In this document: positions 1 to 6,070 of the stretch, in pieces | How the letters are laid out: each line of letters starts with the position of its first letter | Numbering within the stretch: position 1 is the first letter of the stretch | IMG/VR virus record: IMGVR_UViG_3300045988_014614 | Span: 1-6,070 of that record | DNA from: a virus | Reading direction: 5' to 3' (one strand) | DNA: 6,070 nt | Program-made: the position numbers and the translations under genes | Notes under the pieces: generated by a model | The model's input: only the letters and a program-made list of their open reading frames with translations | Told to the model about the DNA's origin: nothing | The model's database searches: none

Positions 1-55
1 GGTTTTTTTGGTTTTCGTTGTCTAGATGTCCTTTTCCGAGTTCATAGTCTTTTGC
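1..55. repeat. Terminal direct repeat, left copy (assembly overlap of a circular genome)
   Basis: 1-55 (GGTTTTTTTGGTTTTCGTTGTCTAGATGTCCTTTTCCGAGTTCATAGTCTTTTGC) is identical base for base to 6016-6070. A long minus-strand ORF reads seamlessly through the implied junction. Confidence 0.95.
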
Positions 56-952
56 GATTTTGTCCACCATAGCTGCTGCTTGTTCTTTCGCTGCTTCAGC
101 CGACATTCTCCTTGTTATCATGTCGTAGTAGAAATTCTCTACTTCCTTTTGTATCTTTCTTGCAGTGTTGTAGTTTACATCTACGATTGAGTCTTGCACA
201 GCTCCTTCTTTTTGTAATAATGCTATCTCCGACACTAGTTTTGCTACTCTTTCCTCTTGAGTTTTGTCTAGATATTTTGTGTTTAATGCCTCTTGCTTCC
301 ATAGCTCGATTGCTTTTTTCGCATTGGCTGCTGCCTCTGTTACATTACTTTCTGCGATGTTTTCCTTACTCAGTTGGATTCTATTCTCAATCTCTTGCCA
401 CTTATTGCTCAATTCCTGCCCTTCAGTGTCCACTCCTGCGATTTTATTTGCTTCGGCAATGGTTTTGGTTGCTTCTGCGTTTGCGAGTCGATTTTGAGCC
501 TCTATTTGCTTCAATTGCAGTCCTAGTGATTGTTGTTGCAGTGCTACCTCCACCGGATTGGTTTTTGGTGCGTTTGGTTGAGTCGCTGTTCCTCCGGCCG
601 TGCTTGCCGCTTGTCCTCCTCCGTTTCCGTACATAAGCCCTACACTTAGCCCTGCGTCTTCCATCTCGGCTCTTTGTGCTCCAAAGTTGGTGTCTTTCCA
701 CATTTGCAGATTTCGCTTGTATTCAGCGTCTGCCGCTTGTTGTCCGTAATTATATTGCAGACCCATTCCTTCCTTTTCATACTCCCATGCTTGTTGCATT
801 AGTTTTTGTTGGTTTTTGAATCCGTTATTGTTTCTTTTGAATAGACCCCCTAGTAGTCCTAGACCACCGCTGACTATTGACCCGATTCCTCCGGTTACAG
901 CTCCTGCTAATCCTGAGGTTGCTGCATTTGCTAATGTTGCTCCTAATCCCAT
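1..952 (-). CDS. VP2: DNA pilot / minor capsid protein (VP2, phiX174 H-like), N-terminal 317 codons plus 1 nt; continues across the circular junction into 5891-6015
   Basis: Hand translation of the minus strand from ATG (950-952) runs to position 1 with no stop: MGLGATLANAATSGLAGAVTGGIGSIVSGGLGLLGGLFKRNNNGFKNQQKLMQQAWEYEKEGMGLQYNYGQQAADAEYKRNLQMWKDTNFGAQRAEMEDAGLSVGLMYGNGGG... It is absent from the ORF track because it has no stop inside the window. It has a Gly-rich hydrophobic N-terminus, an MEDAGL motif (647-664) and a long Q/E/K/A-rich helical remainder, which matches my recollection of microvirus pilot proteins. It lies directly upstream of rep. Confidence 0.85.
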   Translation of the reverse strand, partial: MGLGATLANAATSGLAGAVTGGIGSIVSGGLGLLGGLFKRNNNGFKNQQKLMQQAWEYEKEGMGLQYNYGQQAADAEYKRNLQMWKDTNFGAQRAEMEDAGLSVGLMYGNGGGQAASTAGGTATQPNAPKTNPVEVALQQQSLGLQLKQIEAQNRLANAEATKTIAEANKIAGVDTEGQELSNKWQEIENRIQLSKENIAESNVTEAAANAKKAIELWKQEALNTKYLDKTQEERVAKLVSEIALLQKEGAVQDSIVDVNYNTARKIQKEVENFYYDMITRRMSAEAAKEQAAAMVDKIAKDYELGKGHLDNENQKN

Positions 953-1008
953 GATAATAAATTTTTACATTCTTCGCGCTTACTTTGAAGAAGCGTCTAC
1001 CTATATTT

Positions 1009-1036
1009 ACTTGATATAATATGCTATATGCGTACT
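1009..1036 (-). other. dif-like 28-mer (candidate XerC/D-type recombination site); hypothesis only
   Basis: The minus-strand 28-mer AGTACGCATATAGCATATTATATCAAGT aligns without gaps to E. coli dif GGTGCGCATAATGTATATTATGTTAAAT (recalled from memory) at 20 of 28 positions by hand count. It is non-coding, and the arm-like part CGCATATAG is also one arm of a 9-bp inverted repeat. Confidence 0.3.
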
Positions 1037-1096
1037 GTGCTTTTTTGGCTTTAAAAAGCGGACATAAATATTTACATCCGCCCTTTTCGCATATAG
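1024..1096. repeat. 9-bp perfect inverted repeat (CTATATGCG 1024-1032 / CGCATATAG 1088-1096) enclosing the IG1 hairpins
   Basis: Read directly from the sequence. The arms are 55 nt apart and bracket the terminator-like hairpin at 1058-1081. They also bracket an alternative hairpin, GCTTTTT (1039-1045) / AAAAAGC (1053-1059). Confidence 0.7.
1053..1081 (-). terminator. Intrinsic-terminator-like hairpin plus U-run after the VP1 / 112-aa transcription unit
   Basis: The minus-sense sequence is GCGGAUGUAA-AUAU-UUAUGUCCGC (1081 down to 1058) followed by UUUUU (1057-1053). The stem is 10 bp. The two positions that are C.A mismatches on the plus strand become G.U wobbles on the gene-sense strand. It lies 35 nt downstream of the 112-aa ORF stop. 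Confidence 0.6.
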
Positions 1097-1115
1097 TGTT
1101 CGTAGTCGTACCCGA

Positions 1116-1454
1116 CTAGTTGTCTCTAGTTGGATTTAGTTCAGTTACTCCTCCTTCGGTTTGGCCTTCTGCTGTTTTTGGTTTTTCGGCTTCTCCCTTT
1201 TTGAGGTATTCATTCAATTTGTAGTTGTTGACCCTATCCATTGCATCCATAGCTAACGCCCATTTGTCCGTACGTATGTTACAGTCTTCTCTTACTCCTG
1301 CTTGTTTAGGTGTATAGATCATAGGTGCTCCGTCCGTCAATGGTTCGTTTTCATCAAGTATTCTTTGGATCTTTTTGATCAAGGTTTCACCTTCTTCTGT
1401 CATCTCGATCATTCCTTTAAAGTTGTTTATTCTAATTTTTTTAATTGTTTTCAT
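1116..1454 (-). CDS. 112-aa protein of unknown function; positional candidate for an internal scaffolding or assembly protein
   Basis: ATG at 1452-1454 is only 2 nt after the VP1 stop; TAG at 1116-1118. Composition is protein-like, with a charged C-terminal tail. The segment PMIYTPKQAGVREDCNIRTDKWALAMDA looks like a conserved core, but I cannot name a family from memory. The terminator-like hairpin follows. Confidence 0.65.
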   Translation of the reverse strand: MKTIKKIRINNFKGMIEMTEEGETLIKKIQRILDENEPLTDGAPMIYTPKQAGVREDCNIRTDKWALAMDAMDRVNNYKLNEYLKKGEAEKPKTAEGQTEGGVTELNPTRDN

Positions 1455-1456
1455 AA

Positions 1457-3433
1457 TTATAAGAATGGAATTTGTTTAGCACTATAGTTACCTCTTCTCG
1501 TTGCTTGTATTACTGTTTGTACCCAGAAATTCTGGCTATCGATTGATGTGTCTGCAAAGATTTCGATGTATTTTTGTGGATCAATATAAGTTGTTAGATC
1601 TGTTATTTCGCTATTTTCTACTTCATATCGTCTGTTTAATACCATGAAATCTAATGCTTCTCCGGCCGCAAAATCTCCGTATGTACGGTTATAGTTAGTC
1701 ATGTAGTCGATCCAAGCCACCGTTTTATTTGCTGCTTTATGGATCATCGTTGATATACTTCCACTTCCGTTATACGTGGATGTATCTCCAACCATTTGTT
1801 CCTGAATTAAATCTTGATATCCGATTCCATCTAGTGCGGGTTTGTGTAGGTCATCGATTGTCTGTAGATTTAAGTCGAAGTCATTTCCTTGCGAATAGTC
1901 TATCATTGGTGTTATAGCCATCACTCCCATAATATATCCTGGTTCTTCGCACTGATAGTGTACGTGTCCGTTATTCATTGGTTTGCCTCCTCTCCCGATT
2001 GCTGCGATATCTCCTAGCGGCTGACTGCCGTACGTTGTTTCTGTTGCGCTTTTTGATATTACCTCGTCGAATTCGATATATTGCGTCATGCCTCCGATAA
2101 ACACAGGTGTTTCGGGTCTATCGAGATACTTTCCTGCTGTGTATACTGTTTCTAGCCAATCCCTGTATGTGCCTCCGGATACCGCAATTCTGTTCAACAT
2201 GTTGTAGACTTTTTGTTGTAAGTTCAATGCATCCATTGTCAACTTTCCGTCATTGGCTGTAATGTCGATACTTGTTATTTCTGTGATACCGCCTGTTCCA
2301 TCGATCCAATCTGTTTGCACCCAGTTGTTGAAAATGTCGCTGTCGTATGTTTTTAGTAACATTCCCCCTAGTTTATTAGCTTGTGCTGTTATCAGGTCTT
2401 CAAACATCTTTGCCAATTCTGTTGATCCGTTGTTGGCATCGTTTAAGTTTGATCCGTACATAATTAGTGTTTCGTTCCCCTTTTTATGTAGAATTACATC
2501 TCTGATTTGATCAAGCACTTTTAAGTCGTATTGACCTAATTGGGTTTTGATGAATTTAGCCGTTTCTTTTGTCGTGAGAAGTTGTAATATTGTTGCGTAT
2601 GGATTAGCGCTTATGTTATTTAAGGTAATTGTACCGGTTAGTGCATTTGTTGTTAATTGACCTAATGTTTTATAGTATAACCCTCCATCGCTTTCTAATA
2701 TTGTTACTTTTATGCTGTCCCAAAAACGTTGATAATCAATGCCGGTTAAATTTGTTTTGATAGTGGTCGTTTTTGTTATCTGTACACTTTCTTGATTTTT
2801 TCCGATGGTATAATTTCCATCATGTGAACTCTGGTATGTATTTTGAATGTCTAGAGTTACTTCTCCTGCTCCTTTTAACATGTAAAATTTCTTTTCTTGT
2901 GTGTTTGCGAAGAAATTTTTAAAAATGTCAAGGTATAAGAGTAGAGGTATTCCGTTTTTATATACTCCTTCTGTTGAAGCTTTTCCTAATCTTTTGGATT
3001 TGCTCCATCCGAGATATTTGTATAATGCTGATGCTGAGATGTTTGTTGTTGCCGCTGCTGCAGTTCCGTATGTTTTTGCATACATCATTGGTAGTTTGAT
3101 GTCACTCATCTTCATACCGATTCCTGTTCGGTTGTTGTGTAACCAACTGTTGTATAATCGGAAACCTCCGAAAAATAGGAAGTGTTGTAGTTTGAATGAT
3201 CCAAATAGCGGCCCAAGCGTAGGTTGGCTTAGTGTTTTGTTGATTAAGTTTATATCAATGATATCTCCCTTTTGACAGAGTATTTTGCAGAATGGTACAA
3301 GCATTCCTACACCGATTGAACTTCTAAATATTGTTGATATATCGTGAGTAGACATGTCATAGTCTCTCATAGCGACTTTCATTTTATTGTTGTCGCCTAG
3401 TGTATTTTTACCTAAGGTTCTTACAACTGCCAT
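1457..3433 (-). CDS. VP1: Major capsid protein (Microviridae F / VP1 family)
   Basis: This is the longest ORF (658 aa), with ATG at 3431-3433 and TAA at 1457-1459. The N-terminal region STHDISTIFRSSIGVGMLVPFCKILCQKGDIIDINL...GSFKLQHFLFFGGFRLYNSW fits the conserved N-terminal pattern of microvirus capsid proteins (HDLS ... G.L.P ... GD ... FF..R.Y..W). It sits in genome context with VP2 and an HUH Rep. GGAGGA lies 7 nt upstream of the ATG. Confidence 0.9.
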   Translation of the reverse strand: MAVVRTLGKNTLGDNNKMKVAMRDYDMSTHDISTIFRSSIGVGMLVPFCKILCQKGDIIDINLINKTLSQPTLGPLFGSFKLQHFLFFGGFRLYNSWLHNNRTGIGMKMSDIKLPMMYAKTYGTAAAATTNISASALYKYLGWSKSKRLGKASTEGVYKNGIPLLLYLDIFKNFFANTQEKKFYMLKGAGEVTLDIQNTYQSSHDGNYTIGKNQESVQITKTTTIKTNLTGIDYQRFWDSIKVTILESDGGLYYKTLGQLTTNALTGTITLNNISANPYATILQLLTTKETAKFIKTQLGQYDLKVLDQIRDVILHKKGNETLIMYGSNLNDANNGSTELAKMFEDLITAQANKLGGMLLKTYDSDIFNNWVQTDWIDGTGGITEITSIDITANDGKLTMDALNLQQKVYNMLNRIAVSGGTYRDWLETVYTAGKYLDRPETPVFIGGMTQYIEFDEVISKSATETTYGSQPLGDIAAIGRGGKPMNNGHVHYQCEEPGYIMGVMAITPMIDYSQGNDFDLNLQTIDDLHKPALDGIGYQDLIQEQMVGDTSTYNGSGSISTMIHKAANKTVAWIDYMTNYNRTYGDFAAGEALDFMVLNRRYEVENSEITDLTTYIDPQKYIEIFADTSIDSQNFWVQTVIQATRRGNYSAKQIPFL

Positions 3434-3436
3434 AAT

Positions 3437-3670
3437 TTATTCCTCCTCTTTTTTTAATGTTTCTTCTTGTTTTTCTTTCCATTGATCGGCTTCTTTGCAA
3501 GCGTAGAACATTGCTGCTACTAGATTCCAATCTGTTCCATCAATTGCCTTTTGAGCTTCTTCTTCTGATTTAAACACCTGCTCAGTAGCCAAGTGGTTAC
3601 CAATAGTAATAATAACTTCATCTGATTCTGCGTCTTTTTTTCTGATTTTGAATGCTTCTTTTAAGTCCAT
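3437..3670 (-). CDS. 77-aa acidic hypothetical protein
   Basis: ATG at 3668-3670; the TAA stop is 3 nt before the VP1 start, and the ORF begins 5 nt after the upstream ORF stop. Composition is non-repetitive and protein-like (IITIGNHLATEQVFKSEEEAQKAIDGTDWNLVAAMFY). No family recognised. Confidence 0.6.
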   Translation of the reverse strand: MDLKEAFKIRKKDAESDEVIITIGNHLATEQVFKSEEEAQKAIDGTDWNLVAAMFYACKEADQWKEKQEETLKKEEE

Positions 3671-3675
3671 AATTT

Positions 3676-3876
3676 TTAATTTTTTGGGTTAATATTGATT
3701 TGTGTACTGTCAACTGAACTGGTTGTTGTTTGTTCAGTTTTTTGAGTACTGTTACTGTTGTTTTTACTCACGCTTAGTGACATTGTGCAGCTTTGAGCTG
3801 TTAGAACTGCTGCAATACTGATAATCGCAGTGCAAATGATTTTGATAATCTCGTAAATAATCTTTTTTTTATCCAT
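3676..3876 (-). CDS. 66-aa predicted membrane-anchored or lipoprotein-like small protein (candidate lysis or exclusion factor)
   Basis: MDKKK is followed by a hydrophobic stretch IIKIICTAIISIAAVLTA, then QSC (a lipobox-like Cys), then an S/T/N/Q-rich tail. The ATG overlaps the upstream 88-aa ORF stop by 8 nt (ATGGATAA), suggesting translational coupling. Confidence 0.6.
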   Translation of the reverse strand: MDKKKIIYEIIKIICTAIISIAAVLTAQSCTMSLSVSKNNSNSTQKTEQTTTSSVDSTQININPKN

Positions 3877-4135
3877 CTTTGAATAATTTTAATTGTGAGT
3901 GTTCATATTGTTCTTTATATTCTTTTTCTTGGTCATAAATCTTGATACATAATAGCCTCTTTTCTTTTTTGATAAATATATAATGTTTTTGTACTACATC
4001 ATTGATTAGCTCAAATCCTTGTGTTTCTTCATCCGTATGGCTATTATACCATATGTGTGATTTCATTTCTTTAAATGTATTGAACTCTTTTTGCCCAATA
4101 CTATATATTACTCTTTTTTTCCTCTTTTTTATCAT
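3869..4135 (-). CDS. 88-aa basic hypothetical protein
   Basis: ATG at 4133-4135 and TAA at 3869-3871. It overlaps the upstream 70-aa ORF by 35 nt; an alternative in-frame ATG at 4064-4066 would remove the overlap. No family recognised. Confidence 0.5.
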   Translation of the reverse strand: MIKKRKKRVIYSIGQKEFNTFKEMKSHIWYNSHTDEETQGFELINDVVQKHYIFIKKEKRLLCIKIYDQEKEYKEQYEHSQLKLFKDG

Positions 4136-4313
4136 TATTTATCATTATTTTATTGGTTTCTACTACACATATAATTTCGAATGTTCTTGTATCTATTGAT
4201 TCTTGTGCGACTGCTACTGCTGTTTTATACGTCCATTTTGATAGTAGTGGAAATGTTTCTACTATTCCGTTGTCCTTTCTTTTTGTGATGATTGTCCAAT
4301 TTGTTACTGCCAT
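4101..4313 (-). CDS. 70-aa hypothetical protein
   Basis: ATG at 4311-4313 is preceded by AGGAGG (4321-4326) at 7-nt spacing and lies 2 nt after the 78-aa ORF stop. Composition is protein-like (WTIITKRKDNGIVETFPLLSKWTYKTAVAVAQESID). No family recognised. Confidence 0.55.
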   Translation of the reverse strand: MAVTNWTIITKRKDNGIVETFPLLSKWTYKTAVAVAQESIDTRTFEIICVVETNKIMINNDKKEEKKSNI

Positions 4314-4315
4314 GG

Positions 4316-4552
4316 TTATGCCTCCTTTTCTTTTGTTTTGTTATTGTATATGCTATTAATACTTCTTGAACGTACGTAATATATCTCCCATTTTGCGCTT
4401 TTACTCATGTTCATTAATTTGTTATAAATGTTCATGTAAGCTTCGTGGATACCTATATCTCCGACGATTTTTCTGATAATTACTTCTGTTCCTTCTTCGT
4501 CCATTGCGTTTACTTCTACACAAATTTCGTTTTTGATTTTTTCCCAACACAT
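4316..4552 (-). CDS. 78-aa hypothetical protein, first gene after IG2
   Basis: ATG at 4550-4552 is the first ATG-initiated ORF downstream of the non-coding region, on the same strand as all the others. Composition is protein-like. No family recognised. Confidence 0.55.
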   Translation of the reverse strand: MCWEKIKNEICVEVNAMDEEGTEVIIRKIVGDIGIHEAYMNIYNKLMNMSKSAKWEIYYVRSRSINSIYNNKTKEKEA

Positions 4553-4568
4553 AATTTTTTGTTTTTAT

Positions 4569-4582
4569 GTTCCATATGGAAC
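4569..4582. promoter_or_regulatory. Perfect 14-bp palindrome GTTCCATATGGAAC (operator-like) in the AT-rich leader of the small-gene/VP1 operon
   Basis: It is self-complementary over all 14 positions when read from the sequence. Its centre is about 23 nt upstream of the 78-aa ORF start, inside a non-coding stretch. Confidence 0.4.
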
Positions 4583-4695
4583 GGTTAATACTCTTGTTTT
4601 TTTGATACTGCAAAGGTGTATTGTTTTTTTCGATTTTCCAAATTTTCTCCTATTTTTATAACTTTTCTTAACGTTTCCATAGCGCGAGCGACAAA

Positions 4696-4845
4696 TACAG
4701 GGTTCTAGGGCGTTGCCCTAGAGCGTTAGCACCTTGATATCGCCAAAGGCGCATACCACGACCTTTAGGTCGGGTACACGCCTGTCCTTAATTAGGTTTT
4801 GTAGGTAGCTGTCTTTCTGTCCTTCTCGACCTTCGCCACCCTGTA
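4696..4845 (-). other. G+C-rich structured non-coding island (candidate replication origin / second-strand priming signal, or structured RNA)
   Basis: An 8-bp closing stem TACAGGGT (4696-4703) / ACCCTGTA (4838-4845) encloses two hairpins. Hairpin A is 4704-4722: TCTAGGGC-GTT-GCCCTAGA, 8 bp. Hairpin C is 4747-4783: 16 bp in minus sense, with one bulged base and two G.U pairs. A competing mini-hairpin is CGCC-AAA-GGCG (4741-4751). G+C is 87 of 165 for 4681-4845 against 14 of 60 for 4621-4680 (hand counts). The ORF track shows no ORF here. Confidence 0.6.
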
Positions 4846-4848
4846 AAA

Positions 4849-5889
4849 TTAAAAAGGGCAATAATCTGCCGATAAGTATTGATACCTAATATCTTCTTCT
4901 TCTTTTCTGATCTGCCTTCGTTTTGCTTTCTTTCTGTTTGTCAAATTTTGTAGCTTATTCATTTGATTGATCGCTTTTTTTCTTTCAATTTCTTCGATGT
5001 CATCACCGTGTAAGCTAATTCCGTTTTCATTTTTTTCTTTGAGTAATCTTTCGTAGTAATCTTTGTTCACTGTGTTAGCCCCTATTACTTCGAATCCTTT
5101 TACCCATTTTACGCCTTTATCTTCAGCGTATAGCCATAATAGTTGTCTCTGTTCCTCTGTATATATGGTTGTTTTGTAGTATCTTGGTAATGGTAGATCT
5201 TGTCCGTTATGTGCTTTATATGTAATAATTGTTTTTTCCTTATTCCATCTGTGTTTCAATTGGTTTCTTTTTGCATAATTTGCTCCAAGCCCTTTACTGC
5301 ATAGAACTATTGATATATAATCAGGATTGTCTTCATCTTTTTTTGTCATGTATTTTGATATATAGTTTATTGTTCTTTCGTTGACATAACGTCCATAGTA
5401 TTTGTATCCGTCTATCCAGTTTTCATATAATAGTTTTGTTAATTGCCATTTTGTTTGATCTTCTCTTGCGTAAAATATTCCGTGTAAATGTATTCTTCTT
5501 GTGTTGATGTGTCCTTTTTCAGTTACACACCAATGTTTTACCGATTTTCCTGTTTCTTTTCTGATTCTTTCTAGGAATAATCTGTGTATTTTTGTAATTA
5601 TCTCGTTATCTTGTGATCCATCATTTTTAAAACCATATTTTTTACAGATATATTCATATCTTTGTGGAGATACTGTTCCTGTAAAATACACTGCATGAGG
5701 TGTCTCTTTCAGTTGTTCGTAGTTTCTGATTCTCCATTCTCTTCTCTTTTTTTTACGACACTCGAAACAGTGTCCGCATTCTACCTCTACGTATCTGAAT
5801 CTCTCGTCTGTACACACAGGCGGATTCCACCTATTTTTCCGATTAGGCAGAAACCGCTTGTTTAATACTTGTTTTGCGAAGTAACACAT
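4849..5889 (-). CDS. VP4: Rolling-circle replication initiation protein (HUH endonuclease; Microviridae VP4 / phiX174 gpA-like)
   Basis: The 346-aa ORF has a Cys-rich N-terminus (C26, C38-x2-C41-x2-C44) and motif 1 FTGTV (aa 69-73). The HUH motif HLHGIFY has HLH at 5482-5490. The double-tyrosine catalytic motif YISKY (5350-5364) has the same Y-x3-Y spacing as phiX174 gpA. The ATG at 5887-5889 is 1 nt after the VP2 stop. Confidence 0.93.
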   Translation of the reverse strand: MCYFAKQVLNKRFLPNRKNRWNPPVCTDERFRYVEVECGHCFECRKKKRREWRIRNYEQLKETPHAVYFTGTVSPQRYEYICKKYGFKNDGSQDNEIITKIHRLFLERIRKETGKSVKHWCVTEKGHINTRRIHLHGIFYAREDQTKWQLTKLLYENWIDGYKYYGRYVNERTINYISKYMTKKDEDNPDYISIVLCSKGLGANYAKRNQLKHRWNKEKTIITYKAHNGQDLPLPRYYKTTIYTEEQRQLLWLYAEDKGVKWVKGFEVIGANTVNKDYYERLLKEKNENGISLHGDDIEEIERKKAINQMNKLQNLTNRKKAKRRQIRKEEEDIRYQYLSADYCPF

Positions 5890-5890
5890 A

Positions 5891-6070
5891 TTACTTGTTT
5901 GGTTTTCTGATTACTTTTTCGAGTCTCTTGAGTAAAGATTGTGCTTGTTTGAACTTGCTTATAGATTCTATGATCTCTGATAACTGATTGATTCCTCCGA
6001 AGATCCATTCTCTAAGGTTTTTTTGGTTTTCGTTGTCTAGATGTCCTTTTCCGAGTTCATAGTCTTTTGC
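5891..6070 (-). CDS. VP2: DNA pilot / minor capsid protein VP2, C-terminal part (non-redundant portion 5891-6015; 6016-6070 duplicates 1-55)
   Basis: The frame of the 1-952 ORF carries through the overlap: ...AKDYELGKGHLDNENQKNLREWIFGGINQLSEIIESISKFKQAQSLLKRLEKVIRKPNK, then TAA at 5891-5893. There is no start codon in this edge fragment, which is why the ORF track omits it. Confidence 0.85.
   Translation of the reverse strand, partial: AKDYELGKGHLDNENQKNLREWIFGGINQLSEIIESISKFKQAQSLLKRLEKVIRKPNK
6016..6070. repeat. Terminal direct repeat, right copy (assembly overlap of a circular genome)
   Basis: Identical to 1-55. Confidence 0.95.

Follow-up and report, generated by a model that had tools for sequence, protein, structure and literature searches.

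What is the function of a G+C-rich, hairpin-rich and apparently gene-free island in the AT-rich genome of a gut microvirus? The island lies next to rep in the window analyzed here, which is the whole stretch of 6,070 nucleotides at positions 1 to 6,070 of the IMG/VR record IMGVR_UViG_3300045988_014614. An initial annotation, made from the sequence alone, proposed three readings: a replication origin and/or complementary-strand priming signal, a structured 3' UTR or ncRNA of the rep transcript, or a miniature mobile element. Our results favor a conserved replication-origin cassette. Furthermore, its orientation and the base composition suggest that this phage packages the DNA strand opposite to its genes, which is not what is assumed for this virus family.

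Sequence and structure of the island

The island described in the initial annotation is real. Positions 4681-4845 have 87/165 G+C (52.7%), against 36.6% for the genome, and only 1.5% of the 165-nt segments reach this value. The other such segments lie in the pilot gene at about 494-750, so the island is one of two G+C peaks. The genome also has a second noncoding spacer of about 165 nt (951-1115). A mechanical 47-aa TTG ORF (4718-4861, minus strand) overlaps the island, but relatives carry 1-nt indels in the hairpin loops, so it is not coding.

Folding as ssDNA and as RNA had been named in advance as a check. The island folds better than dinucleotide shuffles on both strands, as RNA (z = -2.8 and -2.8) and as DNA (z = -3.1 and -3.3), and the closing stem P1 and hairpin P2 (hairpin A of the initial annotation), both 100% complementary, appear in the minimum-energy DNA folds. 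The features are collected in Table 1.

Table 1. Features of the cassette and its surroundings (positions in the window)
Positions	Strand	Feature	Observations
4681..4848	+	Whole origin cassette; functional, folding strand inferred to be the window + strand, T-rich and antisense to the genes	90-95% identical in phages whose other DNA is 81-86% identical or undetectable by megablast
4696..4703	+	P1, 5' arm of the closing stem (TACAGGGT)	Pairs perfectly with 4838-4845; only AGGG/CCCT is constant in relatives and position 2 changes without compensation, so comparative support is weak
4838..4845	+	P1, 3' arm (ACCCTGTA), followed by an A-rich tail	The CCCTGTAAAATTAAAA end is conserved in the F1 cassette family
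4704..4722	+	P2 hairpin (4704-4711/4715-4722); extends to 4702-4724 with a T.G pair	At least 10 Watson-Crick-compatible stem variants across 158 copies; both wobble variants seen are T.G on this strand (TCTAGGGT/GCCCTAGA, GGACGT/GCGTCC); stem always ends 2-3 nt 5' of the core
4727..4742	+	Invariant core TAGCACCTTGATATCG in the 16-17-nt single-stranded linker between P2 and P3; if cut as in phiX174, the nick falls between G4736 and A4737	Exact in 59 IMG/VR stretches, 55 of them microvirus loci, and in 95 genuine copies among metagenome loci; the CTTGATAT 8-mer spans the phiX174 nick site G4305/A4306
4741..4751	+	P3 hairpin CGCC-AAA-GGCG, in place of the AT-rich spacer of phiX174	100% paired in 35 sequences; pair 4743/4749 shows CG:21, GC:8, AU:6
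4754..4776	+	P4 hairpin (4754-4757 and 4759-4763 with 4768-4776), A4758 bulged; includes the invariant ACCAC at 4755-4759	6 of 9 pairs show changes on both sides; ACCAC lies 14 nt after CTTGATAT, as in the phiX174 30-mer
4803..4832	+	P6, conserved AGGTAG(C) (4803-4809) pairing with CTACCT in relatives	Here the partner reads CGACCT (4827-4832), giving one mismatch; read from the aligned copies; extends to a 14-bp stem in L042, one of the copies; wobble variants are G.T on this strand
1009..1035	+	Motif ii, ACTTGATAT-N12-GCGTAC, a second bipartite, AT-rich, phiX-like motif on the same T-rich strand in the other intergenic spacer; rival site for the Rep nick (G1013/A1014)	On the core strand in 72 of 106 complete genomes and never on the other strand; kept in distant relatives that lack the island core, where its orientation also follows the T-rich strand
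4849..5889	-	rep gene, a phiX A-type HUH initiator	Pfam PF23343, E = 1.5e-7; HUH motif RIHLHGIFY and two-tyrosine motif KYYGRYVNER, compared with phiX A FYVAKYVNKK
4857..4870	-	Terminator-like hairpin plus T-run at the end of rep, upstream of the island in gene sense	One site found against 0.5 expected, so weak
4611..4620	-	Bacteroidota-type -7 promoter box for the downstream small ORFs	Relatives read TAnnTTTG, this genome TACACCTTTG (from alignments); no exact TAnnTTTG on the minus strand here

Compensatory change in relatives had likewise been set beforehand as a test, and it was found. In P3 and P4, 97.6% of the cells in the alignment are paired, 7 of 13 pairs change on both sides and 0 of 500 shuffles reach the observed score, while slid controls give 24-36% paired. 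R-scape was not part of this analysis. All 10 wobble pairs in P3 and P4 are G.T on the window + strand and none is A.C, which indicates that this strand folds, although the asymmetry could partly reflect the C-to-T mutation bias of that strand.

The comparison also corrects the fold first proposed. Only the inner 10 bp of the 16-bp "hairpin C" is conserved (P4). Its outer GGCG/CGCC pairs break in 14 of 35 sequences with no compensation, and GGCG 4748-4751 instead pairs with CGCC 4741-4744 (P3), with 14 compensatory changes. The long-range partners 4827-4832 (CGACCT) and 4834-4837 (CGCC) are peculiar to this genome, relatives reading CTACCT and TTCC there. The proposed switch-like competition of pairings is therefore not supported, as the alternative partners are not conserved and covariation selects one fold. 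The linker 4723-4746, previously treated as merely unpaired, is the invariant heart of the element, and the functional strand is inferred to be the window + strand rather than the gene-sense strand folded at first.

Conservation and distribution

About 150 microvirus genomes carry the cassette. The 90-95% identity was seen with Tortoise microvirus 13 and Dulem virus 218, of which only the 3680-4854 and 4562-4854 segments are detectable at all by megablast. Absence from relatives had been named as a possible refutation, and some relatives indeed have no island: Dulem virus 201 has 28 nt between rep and the next gene. One relative has an island-like element (AGCGACTAGCAC...) without CTTGATAT.

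Two cassette families (F1 and F2) occur in both orientation classes described below and cut across capsid clusters, while the Reps of the two classes are 26% identical. The element thus behaves as an exchangeable cassette among microvirus lineages, always in a syntenic position, upstream of the small-ORF block. Literature searches found no report of this element or of reversed polarity in Microviridae.

Orientation and strand composition

The cassette is antisense to the genes in most genomes, including this one (O class), and sense in a minority (S class). At four-fold sites, the gene strand reads T 0.66 / A 0.13 in the sense class (n=11) and A 0.63 / T 0.14 in the antisense class (n=48). Expressed on the core-bearing strand, the two classes are nearly identical (T.63 A.14 C.12 G.11 against T.66 A.13 C.12 G.09). 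In an independent sample, with the gene strand called by homology, 91 of 91 genomes have the core on the T-rich strand (69 antisense, 22 sense). Apparent exceptions, seen when the gene strand of short contigs was called by ORF length, disappeared with the homology calls, as T-rich strands carry long spurious ORFs.

T-richness is the known signature of the packaged strand of ssDNA phages. An NNT codon preference is their published signature (PMC3278643), and phiX174, Chp2 and SpV4 have gene strands with 51-66% T at four-fold sites. However, phiMH2K, a cultured gokushovirus always described as positive-sense, also has an A-rich, G-poor gene strand (A.45, T.23, C.25, G.07). Either it too is mis-assumed, or T-richness is not a reliable marker of the packaged strand; whether its polarity had been measured was not ascertained here. 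A survey of this skew across all Microviridae, with ancestral-state mapping of origin orientation, was not made. The mirrored composition is not explained by different hosts, because two type II CRISPR arrays with the same 47-nt repeat hold spacers against both classes, and one array targets both. In 32 of 36 spacer-class combinations the spacers lie on one strand, which looked like independent evidence for a special strand, but the inferred PAM is purine/A-rich and the compositional skew alone explains the bias. We therefore use the spacers only as evidence for a shared host.

A comparable logic is found in animal mitochondrial genomes, in which flipping the replication origin relative to the genes reverses the strand compositional skew (10.1101/2020.05.09.085712, PMC7062073). 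The replication mechanism differs, and here the consequence would be a change in which strand is encapsidated.

Similarity to known origins

The linker and P4 together resemble the 30-nt viral-strand origin of phiX174 and the Bullavirinae (CAACTTG|ATATTAATAACACTATAGACCAC) in two blocks, CAcCTTG|ATAT and, 14 nt later, ACCAC, both in invariant columns. At the sequence level, CACCTTGATAT at 4730-4740 contains an exact 8-mer across the nick, on the T-rich strand as in phiX174, and the Rep is of the same two-tyrosine type (YxxxYVN). For the right-hand end of the 30-mer (...GACCAC), the picture is divided: the spacing is as in phiX174 in this genome, but 25 nt in some sense-class variants, and the whole match (18/30) is at chance level, reached by 80% of shuffles. 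We do not use this overall identity as evidence, and the weight rests on two blocks noticed after the fact. The AT-rich spacer of phiX174 and the location inside rep on the coding strand are not shared, since here the spacer is a G+C hairpin, covarying hairpins flank the motif, and the element is intergenic and antisense to the genes. Cleavage and religation by Rep were not assayed. A general pattern, CANCTTGATAT-N14-ACCAC, in a search of IMG/VR that was not exhaustive, recovered among microviruses only phiX-like phages and this group, the rest being chance hits in large contigs.

The cassette also resembles the complementary-strand origins of ssDNA replicons, namely the G4 primase site, the phiX174 n' (PriA) site, the f1 minus-strand origin, and the plasmid single-strand origins (ssoA/U/T/W). 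It is a noncoding cluster of imperfect hairpins which folds on one strand, is much better conserved than the rest of the genome, is independent of Rep type, and is exchanged among replicons that share hosts. Its orientation is tied to the T-rich strand and not to the genes, as would fit the displaced or packaged strand, whose identity is itself inferred. The TAGCGT/TAGCGA next to the core in family F2 recalls the ssoA CS-6 motif, yet no sequence similarity to any of these origins was tested or is claimed. The priming route of the Bacteroidota-like host is unknown, and primer synthesis at the element was not measured.

A probable replication-origin cassette on the inferred packaged strand

We interpret the island as a replication-origin cassette, working as folded single-stranded DNA on the strand that carries the core. 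Of the readings first proposed, the origin hypothesis is the one the evidence favors, although on other evidence and on the other strand, so that the earlier interpretation is supported only in part. Our analysis shows the conserved architecture (P2, the invariant linker, then P3, P4 and P6), the covariation of the stems, the tolerance of the observed wobble pairs on the + strand only, and an orientation that differs between lineages relative to the genes but always coincides with the T-rich strand. What follows from here is inference, no experiment bears on it, and packaging polarity rests on composition alone. The T-rich strand would be the one displaced by rolling-circle replication and packaged, so that this phage would inject a strand complementary to its mRNAs. 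On the injected strand, the hairpin cluster would recruit host priming enzymes to start complementary-strand synthesis, analogous to the G4 and phiX174 intergenic minus-strand origins and to the sso of rolling-circle plasmids. This would explain why phages with such divergent Reps, but sharing a host lineage, carry the same cassette. In addition, the linker carries the phiX-like Rep recognition block, which holds the only noncoding CTTGATA in the sense class and in that class probably is the viral-strand nick site. In this genome, the nick may instead, or also, be at motif ii.

We consider an origin-type element on the packaged strand likely, and a complementary-strand function somewhat more likely than not, whereas use of the nick at 4736/4737 in this genome is only tentatively proposed. 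Hybrid junctions between the two candidate nick sites would have proven cleavage at both, but our searches gave only chance hits; raw reads were not searched for subgenomic circle junctions (TACTTG|ATATCGCC or GCACCTTG|ATATAATA).

Alternative explanations

It cannot be excluded that the island is purely the viral-strand origin, with Rep nicking G4736|A4737 in the linker exposed between extruded P2 and P3/P4, the hairpins serving only Rep loading and termination, and priming taking place elsewhere. The phiX-like blocks at phiX spacing, the shared Rep catalytic motifs and the lone CTTGATA of the sense class speak for this, and a nick site next to hairpins is usual for HUH enzymes. Still, we regard it as unlikely. 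Six helices over about 165 nt are far more than a nick site needs, the cassette is shared by phages with divergent Reps, and this genome carries motif ii, which is closer in style to the phiX origin and is retained where the island core is missing, so that the nick site may not be in the island. Two functional nick sites on one strand would yield subgenomic circles. A protein-binding or packaging signal, for example marking the strand for encapsidation, or a regulator binding site, would fit the strand specificity and invariance, and filamentous phages place a packaging hairpin next to their origins. This is very unlikely, however, because in phiX-type phages packaging is coupled to Rep-driven synthesis with no separate pac site known, and the phiX-like blocks and sso-like cassette behavior would be left unexplained.

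A structured RNA, either the 3' UTR of the rep transcript or an independently transcribed antisense small RNA on the + strand, is similarly improbable. The RNA folding, the covariation, and the fact that an RNA gene with its own promoter could lie in either orientation are compatible with it. Yet the Rfam scan proposed at the outset gave no match in the island on either strand, even at E up to 10, and ARAGORN found no tRNA or tmRNA. Gene-sense RNA would turn the seven O-class wobbles into C.A mismatches, the orientation of the element relative to the genes is reversed in a minority of genomes, and a terminator-like hairpin precedes it in gene sense. Neither a sigma-70 scan nor a search for TAnnTTTG boxes found a promoter for an island transcript, and in sense-class genomes the element starts directly after the pilot stop codon. 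The perfect association of orientation with the T-rich strand in about 150 genomes has no reason under an RNA model. A miniature mobile element, an integration site or a captured host fragment is the least likely of these. The 8-bp terminal inverted repeats flanked by AAA, the deviating composition and the movement between microvirus lineages point toward it, and Bacteroidetes microvirus proviruses integrate at dif-like sites (PMC3091885). However, a search of cellular genomes, suggested beforehand to test mobility, found no cellular or prophage copy with two patterns in one representative genome for each of 185,579 bacterial and archaeal species, and the position is always syntenic. A dif core pattern, with a consensus from the literature cited in PMC3091885, gave with up to 3 mismatches a single hit, at 2810 and not in the island, within the chance expectation of 0.72. 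A partial direct repeat (4602-4621 / 4734-4754) is explained by the promoter box of the small-ORF operon and is not conserved.

Implications for the Microviridae

Outside the phiX174 group, the replication origins of microviruses are essentially unmapped, although these are among the most abundant phages of the animal gut. The cassette provides a concrete, testable origin for well over a hundred genomes, with an invariant 16-mer in a defined hairpin scaffold and a second bipartite motif. It differs from the phiX174 origin in its hairpin scaffold and intergenic position, and also offers a simple sequence rule for orienting metagenomic microvirus genomes, by the strand which carries the cassette and is T-rich.

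The most far-reaching possibility, which we consider only slightly more likely than not, is that this phage and the majority class of gut microviruses carrying the cassette are negative-sense ssDNA phages, packaging and injecting the strand complementary to all their mRNAs, because the cassette and motif ii lie inverted relative to the genes. More distant relatives with A-rich coding strands would be the same, and perhaps phiMH2K too. In this view, the cassette is a Rep-independent module swapped between negative- and positive-sense lineages infecting the same Bacteroidota-like hosts. The cassette shows an sso-like modular exchange of origins between phages with unrelated initiators. If the composition argument holds, a large clade of Microviridae encapsidates the non-coding strand, contradicting the standard description of the family as positive-sense. 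This would affect strand-aware virome library methods, mutation-spectrum and codon-usage studies, and ideas about how CRISPR or restriction could act on incoming ssDNA.

Genome organization and the G+C-rich island

The window is one circular microvirus genome with a terminal redundancy of about 54 nt, in which all recognizable genes are on the minus strand. The island lies between the rep stop codon and the promoter region of a block of small ORFs. The coordinates of the genes, the spacers and the parts of the cassette are collected in the table below.

Features of the window, with coordinates and strand
Feature	Position	Strand	Remarks
rep	5889-4849	-	Pfam PF23343
Major capsid gene	3433-1457	-	PF02305
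Pilot gene		-	runs across the window ends
Block of small ORFs	4552-3437	-
Island, G+C-rich stretch	4681-4845	+	87/165 G+C
Hairpin P2	4704-4722	+	ends 2-3 nt before the core
Invariant core	4727-4742	+	TAGCACCTTGATATCG
Hairpin P3	4741-4751	+	CGCC-AAA-GGCG
Hairpin P4	4754-4776	+	bulged A4758, invariant ACCAC
P6, AGGTAG arm	4803-4808	+	pairs with CTACCT; here the partner reads CGACCT
Stretch compared with the phiX174 origin	4730-4759	+	CACCTTGATATCGCCAAAGGCGCATACCAC
Stretch matched by CRISPR spacers	4721-4750		GAGCGTTAGCACCTTGATATCGCC[A/G]AAGGC
Second noncoding spacer	951-1115
Second motif	1009-1035	+	ACTTGATAT-N12-GCGTAC; between the 112-aa ORF and the pilot gene
Hairpin followed by a T-run	about 1055-1100	gene strand	GGGCGGATGTAAATATTTATGTCCGCTTTTT in gene sense

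The sequence features described in the initial annotation were confirmed. The island is richer in G+C than the genome as a whole (36.6%), although a second G+C peak lies in the pilot gene, and the two inverted repeats are perfect. Folding as DNA and as RNA had been suggested as a check, and the region folded better than dinucleotide shuffles in both forms and on either strand, with z between -2.8 and -3.3. A mechanical 47-aa ORF overlaps the island, but it is broken by loop indels in relatives. In the second noncoding spacer, the hairpin and T-run located after the capsid and 112-aa ORF operon look like an intrinsic terminator.

Conservation and architecture

The island is the best conserved part of the genome. 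Close relatives are 86% identical overall, whereas megablast detected only 3680-4854 in Tortoise microvirus 13 and only 4562-4854 in Dulem virus 218. The island alone is 90-95% identical in all of them. The 16-mer core is exact in 59 IMG/VR stretches, of which fifty-five are microvirus loci, four are chance hits in coding DNA, and one is a CRISPR spacer. A second, independent scan of metagenome contigs gave at least 95 genuine copies.

Two cassette families, F1, to which the window belongs, and F2, share one plan. Hairpin P2 is followed by a linker of 16-17 nt, which holds the invariant core and is never paired, and then by P3 and P4, a weak CCTTA/TAAGG helix and P6. The cassette ends in CCCTGTAAAA. 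Compensatory change in the stems of relatives had been set as a condition for the reading of the island as a structured element, and it was found. On 35 distinct sequences, P3 and P4 are 97.6% paired, seven of 13 pairs change on both sides, and no shuffle of 500 reaches the score, while slid controls give 24-36% paired. P2 has at least ten Watson-Crick-compatible versions. In contrast, the outer four pairs of the larger hairpin proposed in the initial annotation fail, with 14 breaks and no compensation, and the long-range alternative partners are unique to this genome. The proposed switch between competing folds is therefore not supported.

The wobble pairs indicate which strand folds. In P3 and P4 there are 10 G.T wobbles on the core strand and no A.C. 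Seven of the ten are in genomes where that strand is antisense to the genes, and in mRNA sense those would be C.A mismatches. The two wobble variants of P2 and the wobbles read in P6 are also G.T on this strand. Part of this asymmetry could come from the C-to-T bias of that strand. The folding strand is the window + strand.

Orientation and base composition

The cassette is antisense to the genes in most genomes (O class, including the window) and sense in a minority (S class, for example Dulem virus 245). On the core-bearing strand, the two classes have the same composition at four-fold sites.

Base composition at four-fold sites in the two orientation classes
Class and strand	T	A	C	G
S class, gene strand (n=11)	0.66	0.13	.12	.09
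O class, gene strand (n=48)	0.14	0.63
O class, core-bearing strand	.63	.14	.12	.11

In the metagenome sample, the gene strand was called by homology, because T-rich strands carry long spurious ORFs. There, the core strand is T-rich in 91 of 91 genomes, 69 of the O class and 22 of the S class. T-rich third codon positions are the published signature of ssDNA phages, and are attributed to C-to-T deamination of the single-stranded genome (PMC3278643). We reproduced this for phiX174, Chp2 and SpV4, which have 51-66% T. However, Bdellovibrio phage phiMH2K (NC_002643), a cultured phage, shows the mirror image of the T-rich, C-poor signature of these three phages, with A.45, T.23, C.25 and G.07 on the gene strand at four-fold sites, and its two CTTGATA 7-mers are both on the antisense strand. 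Either this phage also packages the antisense strand, or the composition rule has exceptions; whether its polarity was ever determined was not checked here. The skew of bajarodmic virus 282 (PQ006386) is weak (A.42, T.34), and its Rep gene (3714-4731) is annotated as "spliced", joined from two pieces, in the GenBank record.

Different hosts do not explain the mirror image. Two type II CRISPR arrays with the same 47-nt repeat, one in IMGVR_UViG_3300008060_000094 (4290-9310; L015) and one in OCAI01000024.1, a 245-kb contig (L189), hold many spacers against both classes. About 29 of 64 spacers in L015 and 10 of 25 in L189 hit these microviruses, and both arrays carry a spacer against the island core itself. 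The L015 array sits next to a Cas9 HNH/RuvC fragment, Cas1 and a Bacteroidota-style integrase. For 32 of 36 spacer-class combinations, the protospacers lie on one strand, so that the crRNAs would pair with the T-rich strand. The flanks imply a purine/A-rich PAM (roughly NNRRRCA), and on these skewed genomes that alone can explain the bias.

Resemblance to the phiX174 origin and a second motif

phiX174 is nicked between G4305 and A4306 in CAACTTG|ATATTAATAACACTATAGACCAC (10.64898/2026.07.25.740675). In the window, CA-CTTGATAT and ACCAC match at the same spacing, and both blocks are invariant in the family, while the AT-rich middle is replaced by P3. The spacing is 25 nt in some S-class variants. 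Rep has the phiX A-type motifs, RIHLHGIFY, and KYYGRYVNER against phiX FYVAKYVNKK. The blocks were noticed after the fact, and we do not lean on the overall identity of 18/30, because 80% of shuffles reach it. In Chlamydia phage Chp2 (4315-4335), TTGATATTAA, a 10-mer identical to the phiX174 origin, lies on the T-rich gene strand just after the Rep gene (ORF4), at the start of ORF5, and is a possible unannotated origin.

A second conserved noncoding motif complicates this picture. It lies on the same strand in the other intergenic spacer. Some relatives read ACTTGATATTAA, a 12-mer identical to the phiX174 origin. The motif is on the core strand in 72 of 106 complete cassette-bearing genomes and never on the other strand, and it is absent from the S class. 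The initial annotation had named relatives lacking the island as evidence that would count against its reading, and such relatives exist. Six of eight sampled capsid relatives that lack the island core have strongly A-rich coding strands (four-fold A 0.58-0.75), and five of them (mar40, Dulem 201, 213 and 214, and Tortoise mv 85) keep this motif, antisense to their genes. Bajarodmic virus 163 has a T-rich coding strand and carries the motif on the gene strand. It also has an island-like element, which keeps AGCGACTAGCAC but not CTTGATAT.

Two noncoding elements therefore track the T-rich strand. One is AT-rich, bipartite and unstructured, like phiX ori(+). The other is G+C-rich, multi-hairpin and Rep-agnostic, like a complementary-strand origin or a plasmid single-strand origin (sso). 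In this genome, the cut of Rep was not assigned to either site, and searches for hybrid junctions, which would prove cutting at both, found only chance matches. A family of 4-6 kb environmental viral contigs (L305-L370, for example L312, L317 and L327) shares the conserved stretch CCCATTTAGCAAAATA.GCTTTAGCACCTTGATAATATTTTCTGTA, which appears unrelated to the cassette and probably lies in coding DNA. In the S class, the island holds the only noncoding CTTGATA. In the capsid gene of S-class loci (for example L004 at about 650, L006 and L014), CGTAATCTTGATAT(T/C)TCTGA, coding for ARNLDISE, keeps CTTGATAT on the T-rich gene strand in most but not all genomes of the class. This is probably a codon-bias coincidence, but it could be an in-gene nick site as in phiX174.

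Interpretation

Readings of the island as something other than an origin are all very unlikely in our view. A structured RNA is disfavored by the scan against Rfam that had been called for at the outset, which gave no family at E up to 10 on either strand, and no tRNA or tmRNA was found. A packaging signal or another cis signal is about as improbable. A mobile element or att site is the least likely of all. The island has no dif-like core, which matters because Bacteroidetes microvirus proviruses integrate at dif-like sites (PMC3091885). Mobility had likewise been put forward for testing against bacterial genomes, and two patterns found no copy in one representative genome for each of 185,579 bacterial and archaeal species. 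It is therefore not a cellular mobile element, a host fragment, or part of a common prophage. In four metagenome contigs of 10-18 kb (L182, L216, L260 and L231), cassette-bearing microvirus sequence is joined to several kb of non-microvirus DNA with no AT skew, about 60% G+C in two of them. These could be integrated forms or assembly chimeras, but the junctions are not at the island.

The interpretation in the initial annotation was borne out in part, as an origin is the hypothesis that we favor among those it offered. With reasonable confidence, we regard the island as an origin cassette acting on the inferred packaged strand. It is most likely the complementary-strand origin, although this is only somewhat more probable than not. 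Its embedded phiX-like Rep site may or may not be the working nick site here, and we hold that possibility only tentatively. The conservation, the covarying stems and the association with the T-rich strand were observed directly, whereas polarity is inferred from composition and was not measured. Roux et al. state that complementary-strand genes are essentially unknown in Microviridae (PMC3394797), and we found no report of this element or of reversed polarity, in a library without most subscription journals. Both cassette families occur in both orientation classes and cut across capsid clusters. The cassette has therefore been exchanged, and in every genome examined it sits on the T-rich strand. 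The simplest reading is that it belongs to the machinery that decides which strand is displaced and packaged. In this genome, that strand would be complementary to all the mRNAs.
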